Sequence record: OL631479.1
Reading direction: 5' to 3' (one strand)
DNA from: Escherichia phage ECML-10
DNA length: 64,000 bases
Of the stretch, positions 27,322 to 60,941 are shown in pieces. The stretch's first letter is position 1. The number at the start of each line of letters is the position of its first letter. The notes below the pieces were generated by a model. The model was not told the origin of the DNA. It made no database searches and worked only from the letters and a program-made list of their open reading frames with translations. The position numbers were made by a program, and so were the translations under genes.

Positions 27322-28291
27322 TTATATTCAAAGGTGGTCGCAACACCACCTTCCGCACCTTTACGTGCTGCTGCATGTTACCATGCAGAGTAGACTATAT
27401 CACCACCCATTTCAGGGTGCTTCGCTTTTCGAGCGCCATAAGCTTGCGCCCTACTCCCTCTCGGGATAGTCGTTGAACTACATTACCAATCGTAATTGTT
27501 TGAAATATAGGTGTAAGTCTTACGGTCTTTTATTCCTTTAACAACACTAAAACTTACTCCCCACTTCTTAGCTATTTTATTTACACACAAGACCTTATCA
27601 CTAAGATCCTCGCAGATACCTATTATCTTGTGCTCACTTATCCGATTAGAGGTTGGCACTTTTCTAAAGTTAAACTCTTTAGAAATATCTGGGTATACTG
27701 AGCCATTCTTTATACCACTTACAAGTGGTTGATTGACACCAAACATTTCACAAATGTCTTTTACCCTTGCGCCTTGCTCTAACAGCCTACATATTTCAAG
27801 AGCAGTGGCATCATCCAGAGACCTGTATTTATTGACATAGTCCTTTTTAAGTCCCATTTCATGAGCGTGATGTGTGTTTTCCTCAGGCGTTGTCCACTCA
27901 AGGTTCCATGCGGCGTTATTCAACTTATTACCATCTAGGTGGTTTACTTGAGTTTTTACGCTGGGATTGTCATTATCAACAAAAGTCATAGCAATCACTC
28001 TGTGAACGAGCACTTGGAACTTTTTACCGTCCTCGCACAAAGTTACCATAGCATAGCCAGTCTTTTTCTGCACATTAGGATGGAGGAATTTATTAGAATA
28101 CAGACTGTAAATTCTGCCATCGTATGTAGCACAATAATGATTGTAGCCTAAAAAGCCTAAATTTTTCATTTCAAACATCTCCCTACTACAGGTTCGGAAG
28201 GGTAATTATAGCTGCTGATTGTCCGTTTAGCAATCGGATTTCCCAGCAATTAACGAAGTTATTCGACGTGCATTTCTGCACGAAGCCACTA
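27322..28291 (-). other. Intervening sequence in terL, putative group I intron carrying an HNH ORF
   Basis: ~970 bp between the two terminase halves; same-strand HNH ORF; 3' part contains a GATATAGTCT-like element. Boundaries approximate. Confidence 0.45.
27483..28178 (-). CDS. HNH homing endonuclease
   Basis: 231 aa; HNH motif VNHLDGNKLNNAAWNLEWTTPEEN; located inside interrupted terminase gene. Confidence 0.8.
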   Translation of the reverse strand: MFEMKNLGFLGYNHYCATYDGRIYSLYSNKFLHPNVQKKTGYAMVTLCEDGKKFQVLVHRVIAMTFVDNDNPSVKTQVNHLDGNKLNNAAWNLEWTTPEENTHHAHEMGLKKDYVNKYRSLDDATALEICRLLEQGARVKDICEMFGVNQPLVSGIKNGSVYPDISKEFNFRKVPTSNRISEHKIIGICEDLSDKVLCVNKIAKKWGVSFSVVKGIKDRKTYTYISNNYDW

Positions 28292-29041
28292 TCATTTAAT
28301 GGTTGCGCCTATGAACGAGAATGACAACGGTCTTGGCTTGATCTCTACACCCAGTCCGTTAACCGTGGTGTATTTCTCTATCAACTCTTCTTTAGAGTCT
28401 CCCCATATAAATTCACCGTCGCGTCGGATAAAATATCTTTTCTTACCGCATTTCTCCGGATCTGGATACCCTTCATCGTCCAACCACCATCTAACCAGTT
28501 TGGCAAGCATGTGTTCTGAATCGGGGTTACAGCTGATAACCATTCTTGATGGATACTTTGACTGAGATCGCAGACGAGACATCAGATAGTCTATCTGCTC
28601 CCATTCGAACTGCGTGCCCTCATCGAAGCAAACCATGGTGTACTCAAGCCCCTGATGGTTAAGCTTATCTTGTACATACTCCATGTGGCAGTATTTTACA
28701 ACAGCTCCCTTTTTGCTTCTATCCCACTTGCCAGTGCTCGGATCAAACCGTGGAAAAATGAACTTATGATCCTTCTCTCTGAACTTTGGCTTAATGTTTT
28801 CAGGCAGATCACTATAAATAGCTACTGCTTTAGGCCATAGTCCACCCTCACCTTCCAACTGTGGGGTTGTTCTTCGGAACATAACCACAGAGCTGTGGGG
28901 GTCATCAATAATTTTAAGTGGCATCAACTGCAAGAGGAACGACTTGCCAGACCCTGCGGCACCGCCGATTACCAAAATATCTGCATCGTTTTCTAGGATC
29001 ATCTTCTGCTTTTCAGAACACGGTCCGTAAATCTTAGACAT
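28292..29041 (-). CDS. terL: Terminase large subunit, N-terminal ATPase part (putative exon 1)
   Basis: Walker A GGAAGSGKS, Walker B-like VCFDEG; 249 aa. Confidence 0.75.
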   Translation of the reverse strand: MSKIYGPCSEKQKMILENDADILVIGGAAGSGKSFLLQLMPLKIIDDPHSSVVMFRRTTPQLEGEGGLWPKAVAIYSDLPENIKPKFREKDHKFIFPRFDPSTGKWDRSKKGAVVKYCHMEYVQDKLNHQGLEYTMVCFDEGTQFEWEQIDYLMSRLRSQSKYPSRMVISCNPDSEHMLAKLVRWWLDDEGYPDPEKCGKKRYFIRRDGEFIWGDSKEELIEKYTTVNGLGVEIKPRPLSFSFIGATIK

Positions 29042-29328
29042 TAACCTCTCTCCTTTGGAAACAGTGTTCTAATATAGTCTTGCAAAATGATCAATTTAGC
29101 TCTATCATTGCTACAAGACAGATTATTATCCCTCATAATGCCAGAGTTCACTGCATCTGGCGCACCTTTCTTCAAAGGCATAGCTTTAGCAGGTGGTTTC
29201 ATGGCACCTTCTGGGGGTTTAACAATCAACCTTCCTACATCTGGAGGGTCAATCTTGTATTCTTTCTCAACACTGGTTGCACACCCACATAATAACAAGC
29301 ACGCAATAAACAGTGTAGCAACTCTCAT
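29041..29328 (-). CDS. Putative o-spanin (outer-membrane lipoprotein)
   Basis: 95 aa; N-terminal signal with Cys cluster (FIACLLLCGC), Pro-rich mature region; follows i-spanin-like gene with 4-nt overlap. Confidence 0.5.
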   Translation of the reverse strand: MRVATLFIACLLLCGCATSVEKEYKIDPPDVGRLIVKPPEGAMKPPAKAMPLKKGAPDAVNSGIMRDNNLSCSNDRAKLIILQDYIRTLFPKERG

Positions 29329-30143: not shown

Positions 30144-30221
30144 GTGGTCTCCACGGAGTGATTCGAACACTCGACCTCCTGATCCCAAATCAGGCGCTCT
30201 ACCAAGCTGAGCTACGCGGAG
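30144..30221 (-). tRNA. tRNA-Pro (anticodon UGG)
   Basis: Hand-folded cloverleaf: 7-bp acceptor, T-loop TTCGAAT, anticodon loop UUUGGGA, encoded CCA. Confidence 0.75.
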
Positions 30222-30232
30222 TATTCATTATT

Positions 30233-30307
30233 TGGTGGCCCTGGGTGGAATTGAACCACCGTCTGGCGATTATGAGTCGCTTGCTTGAACCTTCCAGCTA
30301 CAGGGCC
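30233..30307 (-). tRNA. tRNA-Met (anticodon CAU; could be Ile-lysidine type)
   Basis: Acceptor GGCCCTG/CAGGGCC, T-loop TTCAATT, anticodon loop CUCAUAA, CCA encoded. Confidence 0.7.
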
Positions 30308-30308
30308 A

Positions 30309-30384
30309 TGGTGCTGATGGCAGGACTTGAACCTGCAACCTATTGATTACAAATCAATTGCACTACCAATTGTGCTACATCAGC
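30309..30384 (-). tRNA. tRNA-Thr (anticodon UGU)
   Basis: Acceptor GCTGATG/CATCAGC, D-stem GCAC/GTGC, anticodon loop UUUGUAA, T-loop TTCAAGT, CCA encoded. Confidence 0.7.
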
Positions 30385-30390
30385 AAAAAG

Positions 30391-30488
30391 GTGCTAGGTG
30401 ATGGAATCGAACCACCTATGTATTCAACGACTACCTCGTCTATTTTCAGGATTAAAAATCCTCGCCCTTGCCAAAGGGCTTACCTAGC
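30391..30488 (-). tRNA. Atypical tRNA-like gene (~98 nt), isotype unresolved
   Basis: Perfect 7-bp acceptor and 4-bp D-stem, T-loop TTCGATT; anticodon arm has only 4 bp with loop UUUUUAA (UUU) and a ~30-nt variable region. Confidence 0.4.
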
Positions 30489-30596
30489 TCAGTATGTTGA
30501 CCATGTTGCTAGTCGGCGATGACGACTGTAACATTTGATAATCCGGTTCTGCTTCCGGCTTTCGCTTAATTACAAGGTCAACAATATGGCAGAGGA

Positions 30597-30686
30597 TAAT
30601 GGAATCGAACCATCATCGAGTCATCCTCAACGGGACGGTTTTCAAGACCGCTTGAGCACCATTGCTCCCTACCCTCTTTTATAAAC
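30597..30686 (-). tRNA. tRNA-Ser (anticodon UGA)
   Basis: Type II tRNA with long variable arm; anticodon loop CUUGAAA; T-loop TTCGATT; CCA encoded. Confidence 0.65.
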
Positions 30687-30791
30687 AATACTGATAATGA
30701 CACTGATTTTCGAGCAGTTAGTGACTAGTATAAACGACGATAAATATCAATGCCATTATCTGTATGATTTATGCATTTAAAAATATAAATT

Positions 30792-30879
30792 TGGTGGTGA
30801 GTGATGGAGTCGAACCACCAGAATCGCAATGATAACAGATTTACAGTCTGCCCCGCTACCCCTACGGAATTAACTCACC
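30792..30879 (-). tRNA. tRNA-Tyr (anticodon GUA)
   Basis: Acceptor GGTGAGT/ACTCACC, anticodon loop CUGUAAA, long variable arm, T-loop TTCGACT, CCA encoded. Confidence 0.7.
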
Positions 30880-31009
30880 TAAATACTAATATTTAAATTC
30901 TTTTTAAAATAGCTAGTGTTCTCACCACTAACTATGAGGTATCGGTAAAGTGGTTACCGCCACTTGCCGAAGATTTACTCTGCTAAAGTAAGCTACATTA
31001 AAAAGAACT

Positions 31010-31084
31010 TGGCACCCCGTACTGGACTCGAACCAGTGTCAACGGCTTAGAAGGCCGCTGCTTTATCCACTAAGCTAACAGGGC
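31010..31084 (-). tRNA. tRNA-Arg (anticodon UCU)
   Basis: Acceptor with two G-U pairs, D-stem GCTT/AAGC, anticodon loop CUUCUAA, T-loop TTCGAGT, CCA encoded. Confidence 0.65.
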
Positions 31085-32962: not shown

Positions 32963-33465
32963 AGCTGCCTCCTCTTCAAGTTATAGAAAAACTCACTGTA
33001 TCGCTTTGTAACGAGCTTTTCTATCAAACTGGTGCGATTGCATTACTTGGTATGGTTTATACAGCTGTGGAGCGATTTAGGGGCCTCATTATCCGTTTCC
33101 ACACATAAACTTTATCCAAACTCGCGCGGGAGTCTCTCAACCGACTCCTTACGGCGCTGGCAAGCTTTCGTCGGTGGCCCACATTAGTGCTCGGCCTTTG
33201 GCCTGCGCTATCGCTTCGCTCCCACACATGTTAACAGACCTGCATGTATGCACTTCTGTTATTGTGTGCACTATGGAGGCCCGGCATCTCGCCCCCTCGT
33301 AGGCGAGTGCCAATGAAGGGCCGACACTACCTATAGAAAGTAATAAATTTAAAACATGGTACTTAGGATCTAGTATATTCTACATAAGTTAAGTATATGT
33401 ACTTAGTACCATAAGTACTAGATCTTTTATTTTTTATTATTTAGTTATTTTAGTTATATTCTTTA

Positions 33466-33549
33466 TGTGTCCGTATCACGGACAGTTAGTGTCCGTATTA
33501 CGGGCAGATGTGTCCGCGTGACGGACAGTAGTGTCCGTATCACGGACAG
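33466..33549. repeat. Four tandem 21-bp palindromic repeats (consensus TGTCCGT-NNN-ACGGACA), candidate iterons/operators
   Basis: Units at ~33466, 33487, 33508, 33529, each an internal inverted repeat; preceded by AT-rich tract 33421-33465. Confidence 0.7.
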
Positions 33550-33623
33550 TTACTAGCCTCTGTTCCAGGGCGAACATAAAACATACGAATCCTTATAGTA
33601 CAGATATTTAAGTTTTTACTGGT

Positions 33624-33974
33624 CTAACCAGTTGTTGACATCCGAATAACTTCTTCTGGTGGCAAAACTTTGGAAAATGTGCATCTTTTACCTCTCCCTT
33701 GTGTGGATATTTCAACCACTCCCGCACATTCTAAAGTTTTAACGCACGCTGCTGCTTTTGTTTTCTTTATCCCAACATCTGCTGCAATTTTCCTTGTGCT
33801 GGGTGTGAAGCGTGAATTTCCTCCAAGCTTATACCAGTTGTGCAGGTAGCAGTATACAATCTTGTCATACAAGTCAAGAACAACAACCTCTCCAGTTGTG
33901 TCATTCAAAACTTTTGACATAGACAGTATTTCAAGGGGGACTTTAAGATATAGCAGCTTATCCCCATCTTTCAT
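33624..33974 (-). CDS. Hypothetical protein, possible DNA-binding
   Basis: 116 aa ORF ending ~75 bp upstream of the palindromic repeat array; basic segment RKIAADVGIKKTKAAACVKTLE. Confidence 0.3.
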   Translation of the reverse strand: MKDGDKLLYLKVPLEILSMSKVLNDTTGEVVVLDLYDKIVYCYLHNWYKLGGNSRFTPSTRKIAADVGIKKTKAAACVKTLECAGVVEISTQGRGKRCTFSKVLPPEEVIRMSTTG

Positions 33975-34021
33975 ATCTCCTGATTCTCCTTGTGTGGCAA
34001 TTTTCTTTAAAATAGCAGGGA

Positions 34022-34576
34022 TTACTCCCCGCTGTCAATAGCAAGACTCATTGCAATACGGTATGCCTCTTCTAATGGTAAGAGTCTCCCCCACACATCC
34101 CAACCGACATCAAGCTGCCTGCCAAACAACTGTTGTGTGGTTCCGTGAGCATGACCGAACAGTTGGACTGATCCATGAGGCTTTCTGTTCCACTTTGCAA
34201 ACTGGTAATGGCTCATACAGATCAAATTCTTGTTGTGGCGAAGCTCGTAATAATCTACAACCTCGTGATAGAACTCTTTCATAATTCTGACAGTCGTCCT
34301 TGTGTCATGGTTGCCACGAACAAGAATAATATGTCCGTTCAACATATTTAGAATATCCGGGAGTAAGTTGTTGATATTCTTATCATTAGTGCACGCAATA
34401 TCTCCCAAGTGGAACACAGTGTCTGCAGGTGACACAACAGAGTTCCACTCGGCGATGATTCCTGCATTCATACTGTCAAGATTGTGATCATACTGAGATC
34501 TGTGTTTTTGACATGAATCAAACTCCATGACCCGCTGGTGGAGAAAGTGTGTGTCGCTTGTTACAAAGTATTTCAT
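34022..34576 (-). CDS. Calcineurin-like metallophosphoesterase
   Basis: Motifs GDIACTND, GNHD, GHAHG; start at ATG 34576 (RBS GAGGAA) just after kinase gene stop. Confidence 0.65.
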   Translation of the reverse strand: MKYFVTSDTHFLHQRVMEFDSCQKHRSQYDHNLDSMNAGIIAEWNSVVSPADTVFHLGDIACTNDKNINNLLPDILNMLNGHIILVRGNHDTRTTVRIMKEFYHEVVDYYELRHNKNLICMSHYQFAKWNRKPHGSVQLFGHAHGTTQQLFGRQLDVGWDVWGRLLPLEEAYRIAMSLAIDSGE

Positions 34577-34583
34577 ACATTCC

Positions 34584-34994
34584 TCATTTAAGTTTAATGC
34601 AGTTTTTAAGCTGGCGTTCCATACGATCCACAACCCTGTCTGGAACATCATGAATGCTTTTATTACCGTGGCGGTTTTCAACCACGATCACGGTATAACT
34701 ATACCCATGACTGATTGCCATGTCAATATATTCTTGCACATGTTTTTCTTTTGTAAACGTATTACTTACCACGATACGGTCGTATCCCATACGCATCATA
34801 TCTTCTACGTTATCTTTGCACCATTTTGCTGCAAGTGTTACTTTACTTGCATCCCAGTTGTAATTTCCGTCATCGTCGTACCAGAACATGTCGTTCTCAA
34901 AATGTGGATACAGACCTTCTAAAGATAGAGCATTTGCCAGTGTTGATTTGCCAGACCCTGGTATACCACGCACGATATATAGCATTTTAGACAT
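34584..34994 (-). CDS. P-loop polynucleotide kinase-like protein
   Basis: Walker A GIPGSGKST near N-terminus like T4 Pnk kinase domain; start ATG 34994 with RBS GGGGGA. Confidence 0.5.
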   Translation of the reverse strand: MSKMLYIVRGIPGSGKSTLANALSLEGLYPHFENDMFWYDDDGNYNWDASKVTLAAKWCKDNVEDMMRMGYDRIVVSNTFTKEKHVQEYIDMAISHGYSYTVIVVENRHGNKSIHDVPDRVVDRMERQLKNCIKLK

Positions 34995-35022
34995 AGCAAT
35001 CCCCCGTTTTAATTTTAATGAT

Positions 35023-35051
35023 AGTATACCTAACTGTTTTGTTAATTTCAA
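35023..35051 (-). promoter_or_regulatory. Sigma70-like promoter (TTGAAA-N17-TATACT) for kinase/phosphoesterase genes
   Basis: Minus-strand hexamers in divergent intergenic region. Confidence 0.4.
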
Positions 35052-35054
35052 GTG

Positions 35055-35084
35055 TTGACACTAGGTTGTTTGTGTGGCAGGATA
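35055..35084 (+). promoter_or_regulatory. Candidate promoter for RNA ligase operon (TTGACA, weak -10)
   Basis: TTGACA at 35055-35060; -10 region diverged; shares leading GTTGACA with other plus-strand promoters. Confidence 0.3.
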
Positions 35085-35094
35085 GACTGACAAA

Positions 35095-36030
35095 ATGACA
35101 AATGAGGAACGTATGATGAAGTATTTTAATGCAGACGATCTAGTTGACAAAGGTCTTGTAACCAGTCGATATTATCCAGATCTTGGATTAAAGATCTATA
35201 AATATGCCAGAAAAGTATTCTACAACAATCTGTGGCATTTGTCCCCTCGTTTGCTGGAGTGCCGAGGCATTGTTGTCGGTAATGAAGGAAATGTTGTGGC
35301 ATGGCCCTTCACAAAAGTGTTTAACTTGGGAGAAAATCACACCAACCTGCCTGACAATAAGCTTGTGACGGCGGTAGAGAAAAAGAACGGATTCCTCGGC
35401 GTGGTGTCATCTCATAAAGGTGAACTATTGTTCTCAACAACCGGATCTCTTGATTCCCCATATTGTAACCTCGCAAAGGAAACCATCCGGGAGCAATGTG
35501 GTAATTTAGATCTTATCAAGAAGGTTATGGGCAATGAAAACATGACATTCATGTTTGAAATTTGTCACCCTTCAGATCCGCATATTGTTCAGGAAGATCA
35601 TGGCGCATATTTGATAGGTTGCAGATATAATGATTCTGGAATAATGCTGCCAGAAGCAGCTTTAGATGGGATTGCCAAATACCTTGGCGCAAAACGTCCT
35701 CACACTGTGCGTGAAATTCCGTTCAGCTATGCAAAAGAATTGGCTGCAGAAACAAGAGGTGAAGGGTATATGATTCGTAAGCCTTACTACCCTTATGATC
35801 TGCAGCTGAAGATCAAGTCTCCATACTATCTGGCACGGAAGGCCGTAATGAGGGGTAAAGCTTGGAAGATTTGGGATGATGATATCTTTAAACGTGTTGA
35901 CGAAGAGTTTTACGGCATGGTAAACTTCATTCGTAGCAATTACACAGAAGATGTGTGGAACTGCCTACTGGAGCAGGAACGCAGGGAGATACTCGACCAC
36001 TATTTCCACAACGAGGACTATATGCAATGA
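35095..36030 (+). CDS. rnlA: RNA ligase 1 (T4 RnlA-like)
   Basis: LLECRGIVV, FTKVFNLGEN, VEKKNGFLGVV (motif I), GEGYMIRK (motif IV), LKIKS (motif V); matches T4 Rnl1 as recalled. Alternative start ATG 35113. Confidence 0.7.
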   Translation: MTNEERMMKYFNADDLVDKGLVTSRYYPDLGLKIYKYARKVFYNNLWHLSPRLLECRGIVVGNEGNVVAWPFTKVFNLGENHTNLPDNKLVTAVEKKNGFLGVVSSHKGELLFSTTGSLDSPYCNLAKETIREQCGNLDLIKKVMGNENMTFMFEICHPSDPHIVQEDHGAYLIGCRYNDSGIMLPEAALDGIAKYLGAKRPHTVREIPFSYAKELAAETRGEGYMIRKPYYPYDLQLKIKSPYYLARKAVMRGKAWKIWDDDIFKRVDEEFYGMVNFIRSNYTEDVWNCLLEQERREILDHYFHNEDYMQ

Positions 36031-36377
36031 AGAAGTTGATTGTGTGGCTGGATGATTTGAGAGATCCGTCAAATTATGGACTCCCAGACGCTGTTTGGCT
36101 GAAGAATTCCTCCGAGTTTATGGATTTTATTAACGATAAGGGAAAGCTCTACAGACGCGTTTCTGAGTGGCATATGGACAACGACTTAGGAGAAGTATTC
36201 GAAGGATATGATTGCCTATCCATGTTGGAGGAAAAATTTGTATTCGGTAAGCCTCCAGTGGTTGACAACGTGAAGATTTTCGTACATACTTCTAATCCAT
36301 CAGCGGCTCGTAAATTCATGCTTGCAGCTGACTCGTTTAAAAAGTTTGGAATAGAGATTAAACAAAACATCTACTGA
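36027..36377 (+). CDS. Hypothetical protein (receiver-like N-terminus), translationally coupled to rnl and sir2
   Basis: ATG overlaps rnl stop (ATGA); begins MKKLIVWLDDLRDP. Confidence 0.3.
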   Translation: MKKLIVWLDDLRDPSNYGLPDAVWLKNSSEFMDFINDKGKLYRRVSEWHMDNDLGEVFEGYDCLSMLEEKFVFGKPPVVDNVKIFVHTSNPSAARKFMLAADSFKKFGIEIKQNIY

Positions 36378-36385
36378 GGACACTT

Positions 36386-37147
36386 ATGCGACGACTGATT
36401 ATTATCTCCGGTGCTGGTTTGAGCGCTGAATCTGGTATTCCCACTTTCCGATCTGGTAGCACTGCAATGTGGGAGAATTTCAGCATCGATGAGGTGTGCA
36501 ACATCCACACCTTTGCCAAGAACTACTATAAGGTGCATGACTTTTACAATGCACGTCGTGTAGCTCTGGGCAGTGTTGATCCTAACCTTGCACATCTTCG
36601 GATCGCTGAGTGGTATTCCCGCTGGTCTGGTCGTGTGATCAACCTTACCACCAATGTAGATGATTTGCTGGAGCGTGCTGGTGTAAAACATGAAGATATT
36701 TTACATGTCCACGGGTATTTGCCTGAAATCACCTACGAAGATGCTGAAGGTAATGATGTAATTAAAAATATCGGATACACGGAGGTAGATACAGGTAAGT
36801 ATACCTGGGTTAAGCCCAATGTAGTGTTCTTCGGTGAGGTTGCTCCTAAGTATACAGACATGTATGACCTGTTGACATCTCTCACAAGCAATGATATGGT
36901 GATCCTGGTAGGTTGTTCTAACACAGTTATTAATTTTAACTGGGAATTGTTTCCTGCTACTTGTAAAGGCACAAAACTGCTGATTGTAAACAAGTATGAT
37001 TCGCAGAGTGCAGATGGAAGTGGCATTTCACGTAGCGACCTTTATCAATATGAGGATCGCGGGATCCCTGTATGGTTTAACGGTGCTGTTGACGCTTTCT
37101 CTGATAAAGTATTTATTGAAACTGTAGAAAACTTTATGGAACTTTAA
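36386..37147 (+). CDS. Sir2-family NAD-dependent protein (sirtuin-like, no zinc ribbon)
   Basis: GAGLSAESGIPTFR, TTNVDDL, HVHGY, VVFFGE, LVGCSNTV motifs; no CxxC pairs. Confidence 0.75.
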   Translation: MRRLIIISGAGLSAESGIPTFRSGSTAMWENFSIDEVCNIHTFAKNYYKVHDFYNARRVALGSVDPNLAHLRIAEWYSRWSGRVINLTTNVDDLLERAGVKHEDILHVHGYLPEITYEDAEGNDVIKNIGYTEVDTGKYTWVKPNVVFFGEVAPKYTDMYDLLTSLTSNDMVILVGCSNTVINFNWELFPATCKGTKLLIVNKYDSQSADGSGISRSDLYQYEDRGIPVWFNGAVDAFSDKVFIETVENFMEL

Positions 37148-37160
37148 AAGGAGACCTTTA

Positions 37161-37874
37161 ATGCTGAATACTAAACTGATCGACAACCTGGAAAAACTGT
37201 CTCAGCCTGAAAACTACCTTTGGTCTGCCAACTGGGTGGAAAACTGGAACCGTGTGGCAGCTAAGGTGAAAAAATCATACACACCATTCGAATTACAGCT
37301 TAGCTTCATTGAGGAAGAGTTCAATGAAGTTTTGGAAGAGCTGGAGAAAGGTGATGGTGGAGATCACTTGCTAAAAGAGGCCTGCGATCTTCATGTTGTC
37401 ACAAGTTATGCCGCTTATCTTGTTAATGACAATCACGAAAAGTGGTCAAACCTGTTTGATAATCCACGAGGTATTAAGTTCAAGATTGGTGAGTTCTATG
37501 ATACACTGATCGCTGCGAAAAACACCTCTAAGCAAAGAGCGTCTGCTTACCGCTTAGCAGAGTTGTCAACAGCTTTGCTGTTCCAGCTTCGCGGTGATGT
37601 GTGCGGGATGATGCGTAAGGTTCTCAAATCGAATGACAGCAAGTTTGCACGGGTCAACCATCTACGGTATTCACACGGTGCCAGTGCAGATATGCCTGCT
37701 GAACAACTCATCGAGTTGGAGATTAAAGATCTTGAGCGACGCTTTGATGGTCGATATGAAGGTTTTGTTGCCAAGGAAGAATTCTACAACGGTAATAAAG
37801 TTATCATATTCCTTGACAGTAAAGGTAAGATCATGAAGCCTTCAAGCTTCAAGGATGTAACAGAGTATATTTAA
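37161..37874 (+). CDS. Hypothetical protein, possibly MazG-like nucleotide pyrophosphohydrolase
   Basis: Glu-rich helix IEEEFNEVLEELEKGD; assignment tentative. Confidence 0.3.
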   Translation: MLNTKLIDNLEKLSQPENYLWSANWVENWNRVAAKVKKSYTPFELQLSFIEEEFNEVLEELEKGDGGDHLLKEACDLHVVTSYAAYLVNDNHEKWSNLFDNPRGIKFKIGEFYDTLIAAKNTSKQRASAYRLAELSTALLFQLRGDVCGMMRKVLKSNDSKFARVNHLRYSHGASADMPAEQLIELEIKDLERRFDGRYEGFVAKEEFYNGNKVIIFLDSKGKIMKPSSFKDVTEYI

Positions 37875-37880
37875 CAACAT

Positions 37881-37905
37881 AGCCGGGTGATCCCGGCTTT
37901 ACTTG
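37881..37905 (+). terminator. Rho-independent terminator ending the rnl-sir2 operon
   Basis: Hairpin AGCCGGG-UGAU-CCCGGCU followed by UUACUUGUUG. Confidence 0.45.
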
Positions 37906-37937
37906 TTGTGGAAAGTATGCAAGTGAGGCAGATAGTT

Positions 37938-38246
37938 ATGTACAAGCACTCTAGAGATCTTGAAAACGATGCTGTGTTTGGGGATCAGATGAAAGAGTTG
38001 GTTAAACTCATAGACAGGATAGAGGATAAGTTTGACACTAAGATCTACATCGACAGCAAAGTATTCAACCACAAAATATGGACAAATCTGTGTGTTGGGC
38101 TACATGGTGATAAAGATATTGTAAATTTGGTTGTAATAAAGTTCATAGTGTGGCAGAATAAGACTATACGTTATTCCGATCCACACTTACTTGTTTATCC
38201 TATAAAAGACCTACTACAGAAGGAGGACTGCAATGCCGTTATTTAA
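37938..38246 (+). CDS. Hypothetical protein
   Basis: Start trimmed to ATG 37938 (RBS GAGG) downstream of terminator. Confidence 0.3.
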   Translation: MYKHSRDLENDAVFGDQMKELVKLIDRIEDKFDTKIYIDSKVFNHKIWTNLCVGLHGDKDIVNLVVIKFIVWQNKTIRYSDPHLLVYPIKDLLQKEDCNAVI

Positions 38247-38502
38247 TCTTGCTAAACCTGTAGAAGCCCACCAGTTTGACGGAAGCTCTTCATCAGTATC
38301 TGATCTGCAACGGTGGATTGATACAGGTGTGTTTACATCGTCACCTGTTCGGACCAGAGATCTTCGTCGCATGTGTGAGCTTGTCGAGCCTTTTGGTAAC
38401 CTTGTCTTGTACCAGGGAGATTGGCTAGTTGACTTTATGGGAGACTGGTTGGTAATGAGTAAAGAAGAGATGTTTAAAATTTTTAAGGAAGAGGCCGAGT
38501 AA
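38233..38502 (+). CDS. Hypothetical protein
   Basis: 89 aa ORF, overlaps neighbours by a few nt. Confidence 0.3.
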   Translation: MPLFNLAKPVEAHQFDGSSSSVSDLQRWIDTGVFTSSPVRTRDLRRMCELVEPFGNLVLYQGDWLVDFMGDWLVMSKEEMFKIFKEEAE

Positions 38503-39785
38503 TGCATCAAATCAAAACAACACTGTACGCACTGAACAAAGATGGCAGCTACCAACAGTGGAAAGTATTCACTGATGGCGAAAAGGTTATCGTAGAGTTT
38601 GGCAAGCTTGACGGTAAATTGCAGTACAAAGAGACGGTATGCACACCTAAGAACGTAGGTCGTGCCAATGAGACTACAGCTGAGCAACAGGCCGAGCTTG
38701 AGGCTATCAGCAAGTGGGAAAAACAAGTCCGTCTGGGGTATGTTGAAAACATGGAAGATTGCGAGCAGGGTGTTGATCTTTTACCCATGCTGGTGCATGA
38801 CTACCTGAAGCGTGGCAAGGCACTTAAATTACCTTGCTGGATCTTGCGTAAGTTAGATGGCCTTCGTCTGCTTGTTGTTTTCCAAAATGGTGAGCCTAAA
38901 TTTATTTCCCGTGGTAATAAGTCCTATCCTATTCAAGGAAAGCTTTTAGAGCAACTTCGTTCTTTCCATTCTACCACTGGGATTAAACAACTTGATGGGG
39001 AACTATACATTCATGGTCTTCCTTTGCAGAAAATAGTGTCTCTTGCTAAACGGTGGCGCACACAGGAAGAGATTCAGGCCGAGATCGATAAAGACTATGA
39101 GGCAGATAAAAAACGCCGTCATGCCGCAATTAAGGCAGGCTTATCAACATACAAAAACTTCAACAAGGTAGATATTCCTGTCGATGTTGAGCCTGTTCGT
39201 GATGATTTGCGTTACGGTGGGTACTGTAGCTACGATCTTGAGTATCACATTTTTGATATTCCTAGCGACAAGGTGTGGTGGGATCCAGAAACAGAGTCTG
39301 GACGCTGCAAGGATCTTATGGATGCAGAGGATACCGTTACCACTCTGATGCTTGACCATATCAAGGTTGTTGACGCAGAGCTTGCGTACACAGTTGATCA
39401 TTGCGAAGAATCTGTTGGTATATTCATGTCCGAAGGATATGAAGGTACCATTATGCGTAACTTCTGTGGTAAATATGAGTATGGTCAGCGAACATCTGAA
39501 GCATTGAAATGGAAAAAGTTCAACGACGCAGAGGTGAAAGTTATTGACGTTGAGAAAGATAAGAATGATGAAGGTGTTCTTATCTGTGTTGACAAGGAAG
39601 GTGTTGTTGTTAAAATGAAGATGAAAGGCACGCACGAGGAGCGTAGCTATGACAGGATGCAGAAAATGATCGGCAAGTTTGTCACCTTCAAATATCAAGC
39701 AAGGACAGAAGACAACAACTACCAATTCCCTGTCGGTATCTGCGTCCGAAATGTTAACCCAGACACTTGGGAGGTTCTGGAATGA
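38502..39785 (+). CDS. ATP-dependent DNA ligase
   Basis: 427 aa; motif I RKLDGLR (KxDG), DGELYIHG, EGTIMRN; nucleotidyltransferase layout. Confidence 0.65.
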   Translation: MHQIKTTLYALNKDGSYQQWKVFTDGEKVIVEFGKLDGKLQYKETVCTPKNVGRANETTAEQQAELEAISKWEKQVRLGYVENMEDCEQGVDLLPMLVHDYLKRGKALKLPCWILRKLDGLRLLVVFQNGEPKFISRGNKSYPIQGKLLEQLRSFHSTTGIKQLDGELYIHGLPLQKIVSLAKRWRTQEEIQAEIDKDYEADKKRRHAAIKAGLSTYKNFNKVDIPVDVEPVRDDLRYGGYCSYDLEYHIFDIPSDKVWWDPETESGRCKDLMDAEDTVTTLMLDHIKVVDAELAYTVDHCEESVGIFMSEGYEGTIMRNFCGKYEYGQRTSEALKWKKFNDAEVKVIDVEKDKNDEGVLICVDKEGVVVKMKMKGTHEERSYDRMQKMIGKFVTFKYQARTEDNNYQFPVGICVRNVNPDTWEVLE

Positions 39786-57756: not shown

Positions 57757-57822
57757 TACTTGACAAAAGCCACAAGGATGTGGCACACTTAGTTCAAAGA
57801 TTAGAGCTAAGAAGGTTCAGCA

Positions 57823-58950
57823 GTGTCCAGAAAACTTACAACAGATGAGTTTATAAAGAGGGCAAAAGCAGTTCATGGAGATAAGTATGATTACTCTAAG
57901 GTTGAGTATGTAAATGCCTGCACCAAGGTTATAATTATCTGCCCATATCATGGAGAATTTGAACAAGCTACCCACCAACACCTTGCAGGACGAGGCTGCC
58001 GGGAATGTGGAAAGCTAAAAATGGCACAAAGCCACATTATACCACATAAGGAGTGGTTGAATGTTATCCAAGAGGTCAATCCTTATGTCGAAGTGATTGG
58101 AGAAATAATAAGCTGCAGAACAAAAGTGCCGTGCCGCTGCAAAATTTGCAGTCATGAATGGTCAGCAATGCCTTATCTTCTTAAACAAGGACATGGGTGC
58201 CCTAGATGCGGCAAGCTAAAATTCGCACAAAGCAGAGCTATAGCCCATACCGAGTGGGTCGAGGACATAACGAAGAAAAATACATATATTGAAATAGTAG
58301 AAAGGGTTAAAAATAGCGATACACCAGTATTGGCACGATGCAAAATTTGTAGTCATGAATGGTTAGCAAGACCATCCCATCTTAAACGAGGGCATGGGTG
58401 CCCTAGATGTAAAGGCAATGCAAAGAGATCCCATGTGGAATGGGTAGGGCATATAAAGGTTGTCAATCCAAGTATTAAAGTGCTTGGAAAAATTAAAAAC
58501 GGCAGTGCAAAAGTATTATGTAGGTGTAAGATTTGTGATTATGAATGGTCTCCTGCTCCTATTAGGCTCAAGCAAGGACATGGGTGCCCTAGATGTGCTA
58601 ACTACGGCTTTTTATCGTACAATCACGGCAAACTTTACATTATGGTTGATGACTTAGAAGTACCAACACTTATGAAGATCGGTATTAGCGTCAGTGTCGA
58701 AGAGAGAAAAGATAGGATATTGAAAAGTGCCAAAAGGGCAGGGGTAGGTATTTATGATCTCTACCTGGCGAAAACGTGGGAAGGATCAACTCAAAACATG
58801 GCAGATTTAGAAAAATCTGTGCATAAGGCCTTCAGCAAGTATAAAATAAACTTCCCTGTAAAATTTGATGGTAGCACAGAATTCTTCTACTACAGGCCTG
58901 AAGTGTTTGACACGGTGGAAGAAGTATACAGGAAGATTTGTGGTAAATGA
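57823..58950 (+). CDS. Zinc-finger repeat protein with C-terminal GIY-YIG/T5orf172-like domain (putative nuclease)
   Basis: Four ~60-aa repeats (C-x-C-K-I-C...HEW...GHGCPRC) also visible as nucleotide repeats; C-terminal KLYIMVDD...MKIGIS; GTG start. Confidence 0.35.
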   Translation: MSRKLTTDEFIKRAKAVHGDKYDYSKVEYVNACTKVIIICPYHGEFEQATHQHLAGRGCRECGKLKMAQSHIIPHKEWLNVIQEVNPYVEVIGEIISCRTKVPCRCKICSHEWSAMPYLLKQGHGCPRCGKLKFAQSRAIAHTEWVEDITKKNTYIEIVERVKNSDTPVLARCKICSHEWLARPSHLKRGHGCPRCKGNAKRSHVEWVGHIKVVNPSIKVLGKIKNGSAKVLCRCKICDYEWSPAPIRLKQGHGCPRCANYGFLSYNHGKLYIMVDDLEVPTLMKIGISVSVEERKDRILKSAKRAGVGIYDLYLAKTWEGSTQNMADLEKSVHKAFSKYKINFPVKFDGSTEFFYYRPEVFDTVEEVYRKICGK

Positions 58951-59002
58951 TCGTAGAAAGATATGCATATCTTAAATATGCTATTAACTAAGGAGGTTCA
59001 GT

Positions 59003-59119
59003 ATGTCATCGGGTATCTATAAAATCTGCAAGTGCGGTTGTCATTGTAATCTTCGTTGGTGCAAGGCACTGGACGATTTTATTTGGCATTGCCCTAAATG
59101 TGATGCGGAGTATCTATGA
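59003..59119 (+). CDS. Small Cys-rich zinc-ribbon-like protein (38 aa), not in ORF track
   Basis: RBS AAGGAGG 7 nt before ATG; MSSGIYKICKCGCHCNLRWCKALDDFIWHCPKCDAEYL; stop overlaps nrdG ATG. Confidence 0.4.
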   Translation: MSSGIYKICKCGCHCNLRWCKALDDFIWHCPKCDAEYL

Positions 59120-59589
59120 ACATTGCCGGATACACAGAAATATCTTACACCGAAGGGCCAGGTATTAGAACTGCCTTATGGGTATCTGGGTGCCCACACG
59201 CCTGCCCTGGTTGCTTTAATCAGGCATTTTGGTCAAAAGATAAAGGAAGAGAGTTCACTGAAGAAGACTTGCAAAAAATCTTGTCAGATTTAGATAACCC
59301 GTCTGTGTGCGGTATCTCTCTGCTGGGTGGAGAACCCTTAGCATACTATAATGAGCCAGATATTATTAACCTGATGGAGAAAATTAAGGAAAAATTTGGT
59401 GACAAGAAAACTATTCTTGTATATACTGGGTTCACATTTGACCATATCTCTAGCGATGTTCTTAAACTGGCTGATATCATCATTGACGGTAAGTATGTAA
59501 AAGATTTACCAACCAAGAAACCGTTCCGAGGTAGCGATAACCAAAGAATGTTTAAAAAAGTATCAGGCGGTTGGGTTCAGGTAGACTAG
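59116..59589 (+). CDS. nrdG: Anaerobic ribonucleotide reductase activating protein NrdG
   Basis: 157 aa; radical-SAM CxxxCxxC motif CPHACPGC. Confidence 0.8.
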   Translation: MNIAGYTEISYTEGPGIRTALWVSGCPHACPGCFNQAFWSKDKGREFTEEDLQKILSDLDNPSVCGISLLGGEPLAYYNEPDIINLMEKIKEKFGDKKTILVYTGFTFDHISSDVLKLADIIIDGKYVKDLPTKKPFRGSDNQRMFKKVSGGWVQVD

Positions 59590-59592
59590 TTG

Positions 59593-59622
59593 TTGACAAA
59601 GCTTTGTTTAGATAGGTATAAT
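59593..59622 (+). promoter_or_regulatory. Sigma70-like promoter (TTGACA-N18-TATAAT)
   Basis: Consensus hexamers; same family as 42251, 50346, 60986. Confidence 0.6.
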
Positions 59623-59653
59623 TATCGTAAAATGAAAGCAGAGGAGGTGCCAA

Positions 59654-59767
59654 ATGGCTAAAAAAGCCTTGAAGAAGGCGTACAAGAAAGAGATTGCGCT
59701 TGAGCTTAAGAAAAAACACAAGCGTGAAAAGAAACATCATGAGGATGAAGAGGGGGTGCAACAGTGA
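59654..59767 (+). CDS. Small Lys-rich basic protein (37 aa), not in ORF track
   Basis: RBS GAGGAGG; MAKKALKKAYKKEIALELKKKHKREKKHHEDEEGVQQ; stop overlaps GTG start of next ORF. Confidence 0.35.
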   Translation: MAKKALKKAYKKEIALELKKKHKREKKHHEDEEGVQQ

Positions 59768-60114
59768 CACAAGAACGTATCGATTTGGCTAATAAGTTTG
59801 TAGATCTCATTTTGCCACGGTTAGTTACTCAACATGCAGACGCTATTTCTACTAATCTTGATGGCTTACGTCTAATGCTAAATCGCACAGATGACCCTCG
59901 TATTCGGGCTGATTTAGAAGCCTCTGCCAACAAACTGGAAAAGTTCTTGCAAGTAGATACGCAAGAAGCCTTACACAAGATTATGGTGGAAGGTTTCTCT
60001 AAAGAATTTACCATTAAAGAGCTTAAGGAGCTGATCCACCAAGAAGAGATGAATATCCGAGTTCAGGCTGTTGCAAGCAGCATGGAGGCGGCTATTGAAA
60101 AACTGTTGCAGTAA
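59764..60114 (+). CDS. Hypothetical protein
   Basis: 116 aa helical ORF, GTG start. Confidence 0.3.
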   Translation: MTQERIDLANKFVDLILPRLVTQHADAISTNLDGLRLMLNRTDDPRIRADLEASANKLEKFLQVDTQEALHKIMVEGFSKEFTIKELKELIHQEEMNIRVQAVASSMEAAIEKLLQ

Positions 60115-60152
60115 AAGTACTTGGCACATCTCAATCTGAAAGGAGTCCCAAC

Positions 60153-60941
60153 ATGGGTCGAGCTAAAGAAACAAAACGCATGCGTGATGAAGCTAGAGAG
60201 GCTCGCAAATCTGATCGCCTGCGTAAGGCTGCTGAGAAATTTGCTGACGAACGAGAGCACACCGCTCCAGCTCTCCGACCAATGAATAAAAAGCAGCAAA
60301 AGTATCTTGATTATCTAGGGTCACGTAAGATTATTATTGTAAACGGTGTGTTTGGATCCGGTAAGACATTCATGGCATCTGCATATGCAGGTGATCTTCT
60401 GCGTAAGAATGAGATTGATAAGATCATTGTTGCACGTCCTTATGTACAGACCGGAAAATCAAGCGGATACAAACCGGGAACGTCAATGCAGAAGCTTTGG
60501 CCTTACCTTCGTAGTATGATGGACACGATTTGTCGTCGTGTTGGCAAAGGTGCTTTTGCCGCAATGCTGGGAGACGGTCAGAACAGCCGTATCGAGATTT
60601 GTGAAGTTGAAAGCATTCGTGGTCGTAGTTTCGATGAGCGATGCTTTGTCCTGATTGACGAGGCACAGCAAACTAACCCTGAAGAAATGTTGTCAATTAT
60701 CACAAGGATCTCTGATCAGGCCACCCTTGTAATTATGGGCGATAATAGCCAACGTGACATCCCTGGTAAATCTGGCCTTGCATGGGTGACGGATTTCTTT
60801 ACTCGTCATCCAGATCCTGAGGTTGGAATGATCAGCTTTGATAGTCCAGACGATGTCGTTCGTTCCGGGTTGGGTCGTCAGATTGCACTCAATCTTATTG
60901 AGGATCGTGCAAATCATATTTGGACCCCTGTTTCCGAGTAA
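60153..60941 (+). CDS. phoH: PhoH-like ATPase
   Basis: 262 aa; Walker A GVFGSGKTF and PhoH-like downstream motifs. Confidence 0.85.
   Translation: MGRAKETKRMRDEAREARKSDRLRKAAEKFADEREHTAPALRPMNKKQQKYLDYLGSRKIIIVNGVFGSGKTFMASAYAGDLLRKNEIDKIIVARPYVQTGKSSGYKPGTSMQKLWPYLRSMMDTICRRVGKGAFAAMLGDGQNSRIEICEVESIRGRSFDERCFVLIDEAQQTNPEEMLSIITRISDQATLVIMGDNSQRDIPGKSGLAWVTDFFTRHPDPEVGMISFDSPDDVVRSGLGRQIALNLIEDRANHIWTPVSE

Follow-up and report, generated by a model that had tools for sequence, protein, structure and literature searches.

The 64,000-nucleotide stretch of Escherichia phage ECML-10 analysed here (OL631479.1; hereafter the window) comes from a Vequintavirus, an rV5-like myovirus, and holds at positions 34022–37905 a cluster of six genes that encode a calcineurin-like metallophosphoesterase (MPE), a small P-loop kinase, an ATP-dependent RNA ligase, a cREC protein (cyclic-phosphate-processing receiver-like), a sirtuin (Sir2) and a MazG-like protein. 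We read the locus as a system by which rV5-like phages repair RNA breaks, probably in tRNA, whose separable parts are contiguous in Vequintavirus and include a sirtuin step; taken as a whole, this reading stands evenly balanced between being right and being wrong. Its best-supported part is the heal-and-seal core of MPE, ligase and kinase, which we hold with high confidence, whereas a sirtuin step in RNA repair is tentative and on present evidence doubtful. The cluster is an already published computational prediction, and the window adds no new gene content. Iyer, Burroughs, Anantharaman and Aravind described a "sirtuin-centred NAD+-utilizing RNA-repair system, type 2" (Viruses 14:1977, 2022, section 3.7.3, Fig. 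5f; PMC9503650) with Escherichia phage V5 and Proteus phage Mydo as prototypes and with a sirtuin, a T4-like tRNA ligase, cREC, a kinase, MazG and sometimes a calcineurin-like phosphoesterase as parts, and they proposed that the sirtuin removes an RNA 2'-phosphate as KptA/Tpt1 does (Iyer et al., 2022). An earlier note on this DNA had proposed an RNA end-healing and end-sealing module with an attached NAD+-using enzyme, formed as one unit and without known precedent. Its domain calls and general reading stand, the latter coinciding with the published prediction; the lack of precedent does not, since the neighbourhood, the V5 prototype and the counter-defence RNA-repair reading are all in section 3.7.3 of that paper, and neither does the fixed unit, as the linkage data below make clear. 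Over positions 34000–37950 the sequence shares 99.2% identity with Escherichia phage JES2013 and 95.5% with phage V5 (rV5); this stretch is present at an identity of at least 90% in 121 phage records, and the feature is already annotated in more than 100 genomes.

The kinase (34584–34994, minus strand, 136 amino acids) carries the P-loop GIPGSGKST and matches AAA_33 (4.6e-10) and PHROG 505, "polynucleotide kinase" (6.8e-10). The best solved relatives of its profile in the Protein Data Bank (PDB) are Pnkp1 (4xrp, 2.8e-5), the kinase domain of Clostridium thermocellum Pnkp (4gp7, 5e-4) and T4 Pnk (1.2e-3), and comparison with T4 PseT by hhalign gives a probability of 94.6% (E 7e-8). It also matches PHROG 8238 (7.2e-6), a 737-position kinase...ligase fusion profile, the N-terminal part of which matches the kinase and the C-terminal part the ligase. 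Homologs of the cluster proteins were gathered from GenBank phages and IMG/VR contigs, and each family was aligned. Invariant in the kinase homologs are G10-x-x-G13-x-G15-K16-S17-T18, Asp35 and ENR108HGN, and in HMMER alignments D35 falls on the catalytic Asp of both Pnkp1 and CthPnkp. From this P-loop with an Asp about 20 residues downstream, the arrangement of polynucleotide 5'-hydroxyl kinases, we infer that the protein is of the polynucleotide 5'-kinase type. The MPE (34022–34576, minus strand, 184 amino acids) matches Pfam Metallophos (6.5e-7; PF00149, 30.4 bits vs a cut-off of 21.5), Metallophos_2 (1.5e-6) and PHROG 547 (1.9e-51). All five calcineurin-type metal-binding motifs (DxH, GD, GNH[DE], H and GHxH) are found in it, as D8-x-H10, G58-D59, G88-N89-H90-D91, H123 and G141-H142-x-H144, and in eight homologs SD8xH10, GD59, GN89H90D, SH123Y and GH142xH144G are invariant; the second motif, formerly written as GDxxD, actually reads GDIACTND. 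The nearest solved relative is the uncharacterised aq_1665 (1xm7, 1.9e-15) rather than a Pnkp phosphatase, and PdeM, a phosphoesterase of the "ligase-associated DNA damage response", is weakly similar (7e-4, 19 bits vs a cut-off of 150). The MPE is a candidate end-healing enzyme for 2',3'-cyclic phosphates or for 3'- or 2'-phosphates. That healing is split over a separate kinase and a separate metallophosphatase, as had been suggested, is supported by the kinase being nearest to Pnkp1, CthPnkp and T4 Pnk and by the kinase, MPE and ligase together mirroring the three domains of bacterial Pnkp.

The ligase (35116–36030, plus strand, 304 amino acids) belongs to the Rnl1/Trl1 structural clade and matches RNA_lig_T4_1 (PF09511, 6.9e-15; 55.9 bits vs a cut-off of 28.3) over profile positions 1–227 of 227. 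Motifs I, III, IV and V, represented by K89-x-N91-G92, E148, E216-G-Y-M-I-R221 and K232-x-K234, are invariant in 41 homologs. The protein fails the T4 RnlA equivalog (TIGR02308) with 38.8 vs 242.25 bits, and no solved relatives were found in the PDB by sequence or by profile. Fungal Trl1 and T4 Rnl1 match its predicted fold about equally well, and its C-terminal helices align with Trl1 and not with T4 Rnl1. In fungal Trl1, the need for a 2'-PO4 involves a His at position +9 from the motif III Glu and two Arg at +9 and +12 from the motif V Lys (PMC11404444, PMC6379707), and T4 Rnl1 does not join 2'-P ends (PMC12440814). The phage ligase has as invariants H156, eight residues past the motif III Glu, together with K242 and R246 at +8 and +12 from the motif V Lys; in T4 Rnl1 both this His and this Arg are missing, and a six-residue gap faces the basic segment. 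As a lead from these alignments, H156, K242 and R246 may correspond to the triad that binds the 2'-PO4 in Trl1. This Trl1-like feature is a new lead of the present analysis, and it bears on the sirtuin: if the ligase accepts a 2'-PO4, the 2'-phosphate would stay at the junction, and hence an NAD+-dependent phosphotransferase would be needed.

The genes of the core are also tightly linked in most lineages. The six families and the DNA ligase were mapped by iterated hidden Markov models (HMMs) in 44 loci and then in five more. The genes for MPE, ligase and kinase adjoin or overlap one another in Phapecoctavirus, in loci L017 and L051 and in Erwinia phage Hena1, where the MPE lies at most one short open reading frame (ORF) upstream of the ligase and mostly directly adjacent to it; ligase and kinase are present or absent together across loci. 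In Hena1, which has a 67-amino-acid ORF between MPE and ligase, and in L051, the three genes are clustered with no cREC nearby. Around this core, order and linkage vary among relatives. In Vequintavirus, MPE and kinase are divergent from ligase, cREC, Sir2 and MazG. Seunavirus, e.g., PVP-SE1, has a single-strand arrangement of MPE, two ORFs, ligase, cREC, kinase, Sir2, DNA ligase, two ORFs and MazG, with overlaps or gaps of 1–10 nt from the ligase through the DNA ligase; this packing indicates that the kinase goes with the plus-strand genes, even though it is divergent from them here. Phapecoctavirus has cREC, one ORF, MPE, ligase and kinase, followed at some distance by DNA ligase and then MazG, and its Sir2 is 32 kb from the ligase. 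L015 and L020 retain cREC, MPE, DNA ligase and MazG and are missing both ligase and kinase. A span of about 8 kb takes in all six genes and the DNA ligase in Vequintavirus, Seunavirus and relatives from Klebsiella, Raoultella and Cronobacter.

The cREC protein (36027–36377, plus strand) scores 54.9 bits against cREC_REC (PF20274, 1.5e-14; cut-off 27) and shows a receiver-like acidic pocket; there is no histidine-kinase partner, and its neighbours are RNA-repair and tRNA genes. D9, D10, D51-N-D53-LGE and H87-[TS]-x-N90-P-S-A are invariant across five lineages, and a profile search of the PDB for solved relatives returned only chance matches to acyl carrier proteins. What had been called a receiver-like ORF of 117 amino acids is indeed receiver-like, with a length of 116, and belongs to a named family, which was defined as a domain of receiver origin with a predicted role in cyclic-phosphate processing and with operonic ties to RNA ligases (Iyer et al., 2021; PMC7824862). 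The protein is predicted from its sequence to be a metal-independent cyclic phosphodiesterase. A two-component response regulator was considered and rejected, as the protein has no output domain or kinase partner and is a member of the cREC family. In six loci, from Demerecviridae-like and other phages, the cREC gene is embedded in an array of tRNA genes, and a tRNA gene lies within 10 kb of it in 22 of the 35 cREC loci. Stand-alone copies sit between tRNA genes in large arrays in Providencia phage PR1 (L006, 7989–8345) and in L007, L024, L026, L027 and L039; no RNA ligase of the rV5 type was found near the array-embedded genes. Near the 23 more distant cREC loci, a search confined to HMMs of the other five families, built from rV5-group proteins, gave no match. 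In the window, seven tRNA genes (30145–31084, minus strand; ARAGORN, Rfam) lie about 3 kb beyond the MPE gene on the same strand (Pro-UGG, Met-CAU, Thr-UGU, one atypical, Ser-UGA, Tyr-GUA and Arg-UCU), and Phapecoctavirus and other relatives likewise have a tRNA cluster that lies upstream of the repair genes or diverges from them. These tRNAs are possible clients of the repair enzymes. The atypical gene (30390–30488, minus strand) is a 99-nt tRNA-like sequence with a four-base "anticodon" atcc, an identity left unassigned by ARAGORN and an Rfam tRNA score of 35.5 bits. The JES2013 annotation has four tRNA genes vs the seven of the window, which is about 400 nt longer there.

The sirtuin (36386–37147, plus strand, 253 amino acids) scores 98.2 bits against SIR2 (PF02146, 7e-28) and has the NAD+-binding Rossmann motifs and the catalytic Asn, Asp and His of sirtuins. 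Its invariants are GAGxSxxSG, FY54NxR57R, N90-V-D92, H109-G110, FGE and GCSN; the class III anion pocket Tyr54-x-x-Arg57 is retained, and the nearest solved relatives are CobB (1s5p, 3.3e-21) and SIRT5 (about 7e-21). It falls under every NCBIfam CobB cut-off (best 122.6 vs 243) and so outside the canonical CobB/SIRT5 type. The zinc ribbon is missing, as had been noticed earlier: the Cys4 module is absent, and four divergent homologs have no Cys from H109-G110 to P144. With a sirtuin fold and not an ADP-ribosyltransferase (ART) fold, the protein also lies outside the KptA/Tpt1 family. PADLOC models of defence-type SIR2 proteins (ThsA, DSR, SIR2-HerA and others) gave no match at E ≤0.01, and a PADLOC scan of the cluster proteins returned no defence-system relatives, only P-loop noise for the kinase. 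A defence-type NADase was rejected on the grounds of this lack of a match and of the CobB-like catalytic set. As a hypothesis only, Sir2 is a candidate NAD+-dependent RNA 2'-phosphotransferase; the annotation of JES2013 lists no gene for KptA, 2H, Macro or Nudix proteins.

Sir2 proteins of this clade occur in about 1,000 phage records and have neighbours that process phosphoesters in three unrelated settings: here ligase, cREC and MPE, in T5 HAD_SAK_2, and in jumbo phages 2H, Nudix and cREC. The T5 operon that includes Sir2 also encodes a phosphatase of the HAD_SAK_2 ("Swiss Army Knife RNA repair") family (4e-20). Three sirtuin-centred neighbourhoods were listed previously (Iyer et al., 2022), and our survey independently recovers all three configurations. 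In Vibrio phage nt-1, Sir2 lies beside a topoisomerase gene, and a metallophosphoesterase is annotated about 3.3 kb downstream; the ORF adjoining Sir2 upstream, the sole neighbour searched among otherwise hypothetical ones, has no Pfam match. Some further features of these neighbourhoods were recorded. The jumbo phages PHA46 (Salmonella; L049, 4513–7001) and SP27 (Escherichia; L050, 4965–6595) have Sir2, then a Nudt16-like Nudix gene, then cREC; in PHA46 the gene upstream of Sir2 is 2H/Acb1-like, of an anti-CBASS phosphodiesterase family (PF23474, 1.7e-16), and NAMPT and cytidylyltransferase genes are found a few kb upstream. The adjacent T5.106 and T5.107 lie downstream of Sir2 and HAD_SAK_2 in the same operon of T5 (L002, 8651–9481) and contain two DUF7415 copies each (3e-33, 3e-30). 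Genes for nicotinamide/nicotinate phosphoribosyltransferase and phosphoribosyl pyrophosphate (PRPP) synthetase divergently adjoin the cluster in PVP-SE1 (L003, 1–1476) and Hena1 (L052, 2852–5595), and NAD+ salvage genes of these kinds are not annotated in JES2013.

The data show which genes are present, which catalytic residues are conserved, what folds are predicted and how the genes are linked; from these we infer the substrate and the reaction of every enzyme of the cluster, and the pathway may be pictured as follows. The kinase would phosphorylate 5'-OH ends. Metal-independent anticodon nucleases leave a 2',3'-cyclic phosphate, which the MPE and/or cREC would open or remove, and the Rnl1/Trl1-type ligase would seal the break. 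In its fuller form, cREC would open the cyclic phosphate to give 3'-OH/2'-PO4, and the ligase would tolerate or require the 2'-PO4 like fungal Trl1. The zinc-ribbon-less sirtuin would then use NAD+ to strip the 2'-phosphate like Tpt1/KptA, releasing nicotinamide and ADP-ribose 1''-2'' cyclic phosphate, which cREC and the MPE might degrade further. The MazG-like gene, though co-transcribed here, would be grouped with the DNA ligase and DNA-metabolism genes. In both sirtuins and Tpt1, a substrate oxyanion attacks C1'' of NAD+, and the ribose 2''-OH then attacks the substrate; by this analogy, 2'-phosphate chemistry by a sirtuin is plausible. The sirtuin step is the hypothesis of Iyer et al. (2022), which we rank first. 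That this phage ligase falls in the Trl1-like class that accepts or requires a 2'-PO4 and that the sirtuin is a true NAD+-dependent RNA 2'-phosphotransferase is a combination we regard as rather unlikely.

Several points weigh against this pathway as a whole or against single steps of it. Sir2 and the ligase do not co-vary: besides their distance in Phapecoctavirus, phiWec181, which is 96% identical to L015 over the region, still encodes Sir2 in a cluster without ligase and kinase (the rest of its genome was not searched for a ligase), and in T5 there is no ligase or cREC within 7 kb of Sir2. The full set is confined to one related phage supergroup, so that shared ancestry explains part of the linkage. 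For the kinase, the relevant comparison is with R38 of T4 Pnk, which lies three residues past the catalytic Asp and contacts the 3'-phosphate of the acceptor nucleotide. The kinase has no equivalent of it, the position being occupied by H, W or A in nine homologs (D-K-F-H, D-M-F-W, D-Q-F-A). The match of the ligase His, Lys and Arg to Trl1 is positional only and is one residue off at two of the three sites, and the first triad Arg of Trl1 is a Lys in the phage ligase. The MPE alone could produce 2',3'-OH ends as in bacterial Pnkp, which would make the 2'-phosphate route unnecessary. A literature search found no biochemistry on cREC, this Sir2 clade, the ligase clade or the kinase, nor did full-text searches turn up an experimental study of phage sirtuins or cREC. 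Lastly, MazG has been counted in the system as the pyrophosphatase equivalent of the jumbo-phage Nudix protein (Iyer et al., 2022; PMC9503650), a counterpart that is possible.

The MazG-like protein itself (37161–37874, plus strand, 237 amino acids) is tentatively assigned to the all-alpha NTP pyrophosphohydrolases from PHROGs (PHROG 671, 5.4e-22), from conserved motifs and from its predicted fold; its PRA-PH match (0.099) is under the Pfam cut-off. Profile searches sustain the earlier family assignments for five ORFs, which have family-level domains and conserved catalytic residues, and leave this one below threshold. E52, E53, E56 and D76 are conserved, as are the motifs SNDSK and GKIMKP (N158, K161, K223, I224 and K226 invariant), and the profile gave only a marginal match to HisE in the PDB (0.05). 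When compared with a viral structure library, the predicted fold resembles dimeric dUTPases, with full-length relatives in many phages, including a thymidine-kinase fusion and a "DR2231-like" protein. JES2013 has ThyX and ribonucleotide reductases and no annotated dUTPase, and a search of its genome for a trimeric dUTPase homolog, made with an approximate E. coli Dut sequence, gave nothing below E = 1. The gene follows the DNA ligase in relatives and adjoins Sir2 only in Vequintavirus. Because of its predicted fold, its position by the DNA ligase in relatives and the lack of another dUTPase, the protein is probably a dimeric-dUTPase-like deoxynucleotide enzyme rather than an RNA-repair part. 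The ATP-dependent DNA ligase gene (38502–39785, plus strand, 427 amino acids; JES2013 annotation) is outside the six-gene cluster; every rV5-supergroup locus examined has it 0–6 kb downstream of either Sir2 or the RNA ligase, and in PVP-SE1 it overlaps the Sir2 stop codon. Exonuclease and polymerase genes lie downstream of the cluster.

The same genes could be apportioned differently. It is unlikely, in our judgement, that the locus combines two unrelated functions, in which kinase, MPE and ligase would carry out T4/Pnkp-type repair to 2',3'-OH ends and Sir2 and cREC, with MazG or Nudix, would form a separate counter-defence unit acting on NAD+/ADP-ribose-derived or cyclic-nucleotide signals or products of the Thoeris, CBASS or type III CRISPR type. 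Such a division would accommodate the jumbo-phage block of Sir2, Nudt16-like Nudix and cREC, which is without a ligase and in PHA46 has the Acb1 match upstream and NAMPT near. It would also accommodate the persistence of Sir2 in T5 and where the cluster is without ligase and kinase, and that of cREC and MPE in L015 and L020, and processing of cyclic ADP-ribose (cADPR) or cyclic nucleotides by cREC has been allowed for (Iyer et al., 2021; PMC7824862). However, the cREC gene overlaps the ligase gene both here (ATGA) and in Seunavirus and is inside tRNA arrays at six loci, and the T5 partner of Sir2 is of a HAD family tied to RNA-end repair. NAD+ consumption by a sirtuin would be odd for a phage facing NAD+-depleting defences, and signal-degrading activity is known for no sirtuin or cREC. 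Less probable still is that Sir2 serves host takeover as a CobB-like lysine deacylase or ADP-ribosyltransferase, its position by the repair genes reflecting conserved genome layout only. The closest solved relatives, CobB and SIRT5 (about 1e-21), the retained catalytic residues and the succinyl-lysine-binding Tyr and Arg would fit such a role, as would the lineage-restricted linkage of Sir2 to the ligase and the topoisomerase gene beside it in nt-1; against it count the absence across the clade of the zinc ribbon that shapes the canonical peptide groove, the scores under every CobB-family cut-off and the three independent associations with phosphoesterase families.

We consider it very unlikely that the genes make up a DNA-end repair unit, in which the kinase and MPE would prepare 5'-OH/3'-P DNA ends for the neighbouring DNA ligase, e.g., after attack by a host nuclease, and the RNA ligase would be accessory. 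T4 Pnk works on DNA and RNA alike. In every relative there is linkage between the DNA ligase and the cluster, with translational coupling to Sir2 in PVP-SE1; downstream there are also exonuclease and polymerase genes, and the MPE has its weak likeness to PdeM. Yet that score is far under the cut-off, the adjacency of MPE, ligase and kinase is tighter than that of MPE and DNA ligase, the presence of the kinase tracks the RNA ligase and not the DNA ligase, and the associations of the locus with cREC and tRNA indicate RNA.

Read as an RNA-repair system, the cluster can be compared with four known or proposed ones. The T4 Pnk and Rnl1 pathway counters the anticodon nuclease PrrC. In T4, the phosphatase is a fused HAD enzyme, whereas here it is a separate calcineurin-type metalloenzyme; the phage ligase is 70 amino acids shorter than T4 Rnl1, has no C-domain that aligns to that of T4 and has basic residues after motif V where T4 has none, and the cREC and Sir2 genes are additional. 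Bacterial Pnkp/Hen1 (Clostridium thermocellum; Capnocytophaga Pnkp1-Rnl-Hen1) is closer than T4 Pnk to the kinase, MPE and ligase set, with the same three chemistries of a P-loop kinase, a calcineurin-like metallophosphoesterase and an ATP-dependent ligase, but these form one polypeptide in Pnkp and three separate small proteins here. No Hen1 methyltransferase was seen in the cluster neighbourhood, and with no Hen1 partner there and no Rnl4-type ligase domain the cluster falls outside Pnkp/Hen1. Compared with fungal and plant Trl1 (LIG-KIN-CPD) plus Tpt1, cREC would stand in for 2H and a sirtuin for ART-fold Tpt1, and all non-ligase folds differ. The type 2 system of Iyer et al. (2022) has the same gene set, phage group and proposed sirtuin role, and its prototype V5 is the phage to which the cluster is 95.5% identical; there is no difference in kind, only an emphasis here on the Trl1-likeness of the ligase, on the dUTPase-like fold of the MazG-like protein and its tracking of the DNA ligase, and on the non-co-variation of Sir2 and ligase.

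All six ORFs reported earlier at 34022–37905 are present, and most details of their arrangement were confirmed, including the ATGA overlap of the ligase and cREC genes and the good ribosome-binding sites ahead of Sir2 (TGAGGA) and the MazG-like gene (AAGGAG). Two needed correction. The kinase stop and MPE start are separated by 7 nt and not by 8, with the GAGGA ribosome-binding site of the MPE within the kinase 3' end, and the ligase start given as 35095 is likelier to be 35113 or 35116, which is 4–7 nt past GAGGA, matches the JES2013 annotation and gives 304–305 amino acids. The divergent intergenic region (34995–35115) contains candidate promoters for both arms: on the minus strand TTGAAA-17-TATACT (35051–35023) with 10/12 matches, and on the plus strand, identified by eye, a perfect TTGACA (35055–35060), 17 nt ending in TGn and a weak CAGGAT. 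After the MazG-like gene, a G+C-rich hairpin on the plus strand (37881–37898; 7-bp stem with 6 G-C pairs, 4-nt loop) is a candidate terminator. The terminator had been drawn to 37905; the hairpin was confirmed, but the T-tract is weak, the tail TTACTTGTTG being T-poor, and terminator-like sites in the region do not exceed in number those of shuffled sequence. Two observations concern the flanking DNA. Between the tRNA genes and the cluster, a gene for a 116-amino-acid winged-helix "replication initiation protein" (33624–33974, minus strand) is bordered past its 3' end by a non-coding gap of about 640 bp (32963–33623), in which four tandem iteron-like repeats of 21–22 nt (33467–33552; GTGTCCGTATCACGGACAGTTA) each contain the palindrome TGTCCGT-N3-ACGGACA and form a candidate origin or operator. 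At 57792–60222 of JES2013 (L001, 1–1464), there are two "terminase large subunit" ORFs with an endonuclease VII gene between them, which suggests a split or interrupted terminase gene; the corresponding region of the window (about 27480–29050) has minus-strand ORFs at 27483–28178 and 28292–29041, whose sizes differ from those of JES2013.

If the favoured reading of the locus as an RNA-repair system with a sirtuin step is true, a sirtuin would carry out the removal of an RNA 2'-phosphate, a reaction so far attributed only to the unrelated Tpt1/KptA; the Tpt1 reaction would then have been solved a second time, by a non-homologous phage enzyme, and no sirtuin activity of such kind directed at nucleic acid would have preceded it. 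The cREC domain would be a new cyclic phosphodiesterase fold, and the phage would possess a complete "yeast-type" tRNA ligation pathway made of almost wholly non-orthologous parts. Whether a sirtuin acts on an RNA 2'-phosphate is an attractive and cheaply testable question, as the cluster encodes six small soluble proteins. For the rV5-like phages, the same reading would mean that phages of a group in wide use for E. coli O157 typing and therapy hold a non-T4 repair route against tRNA-cleaving defences, which would affect the prediction of which defences they escape.

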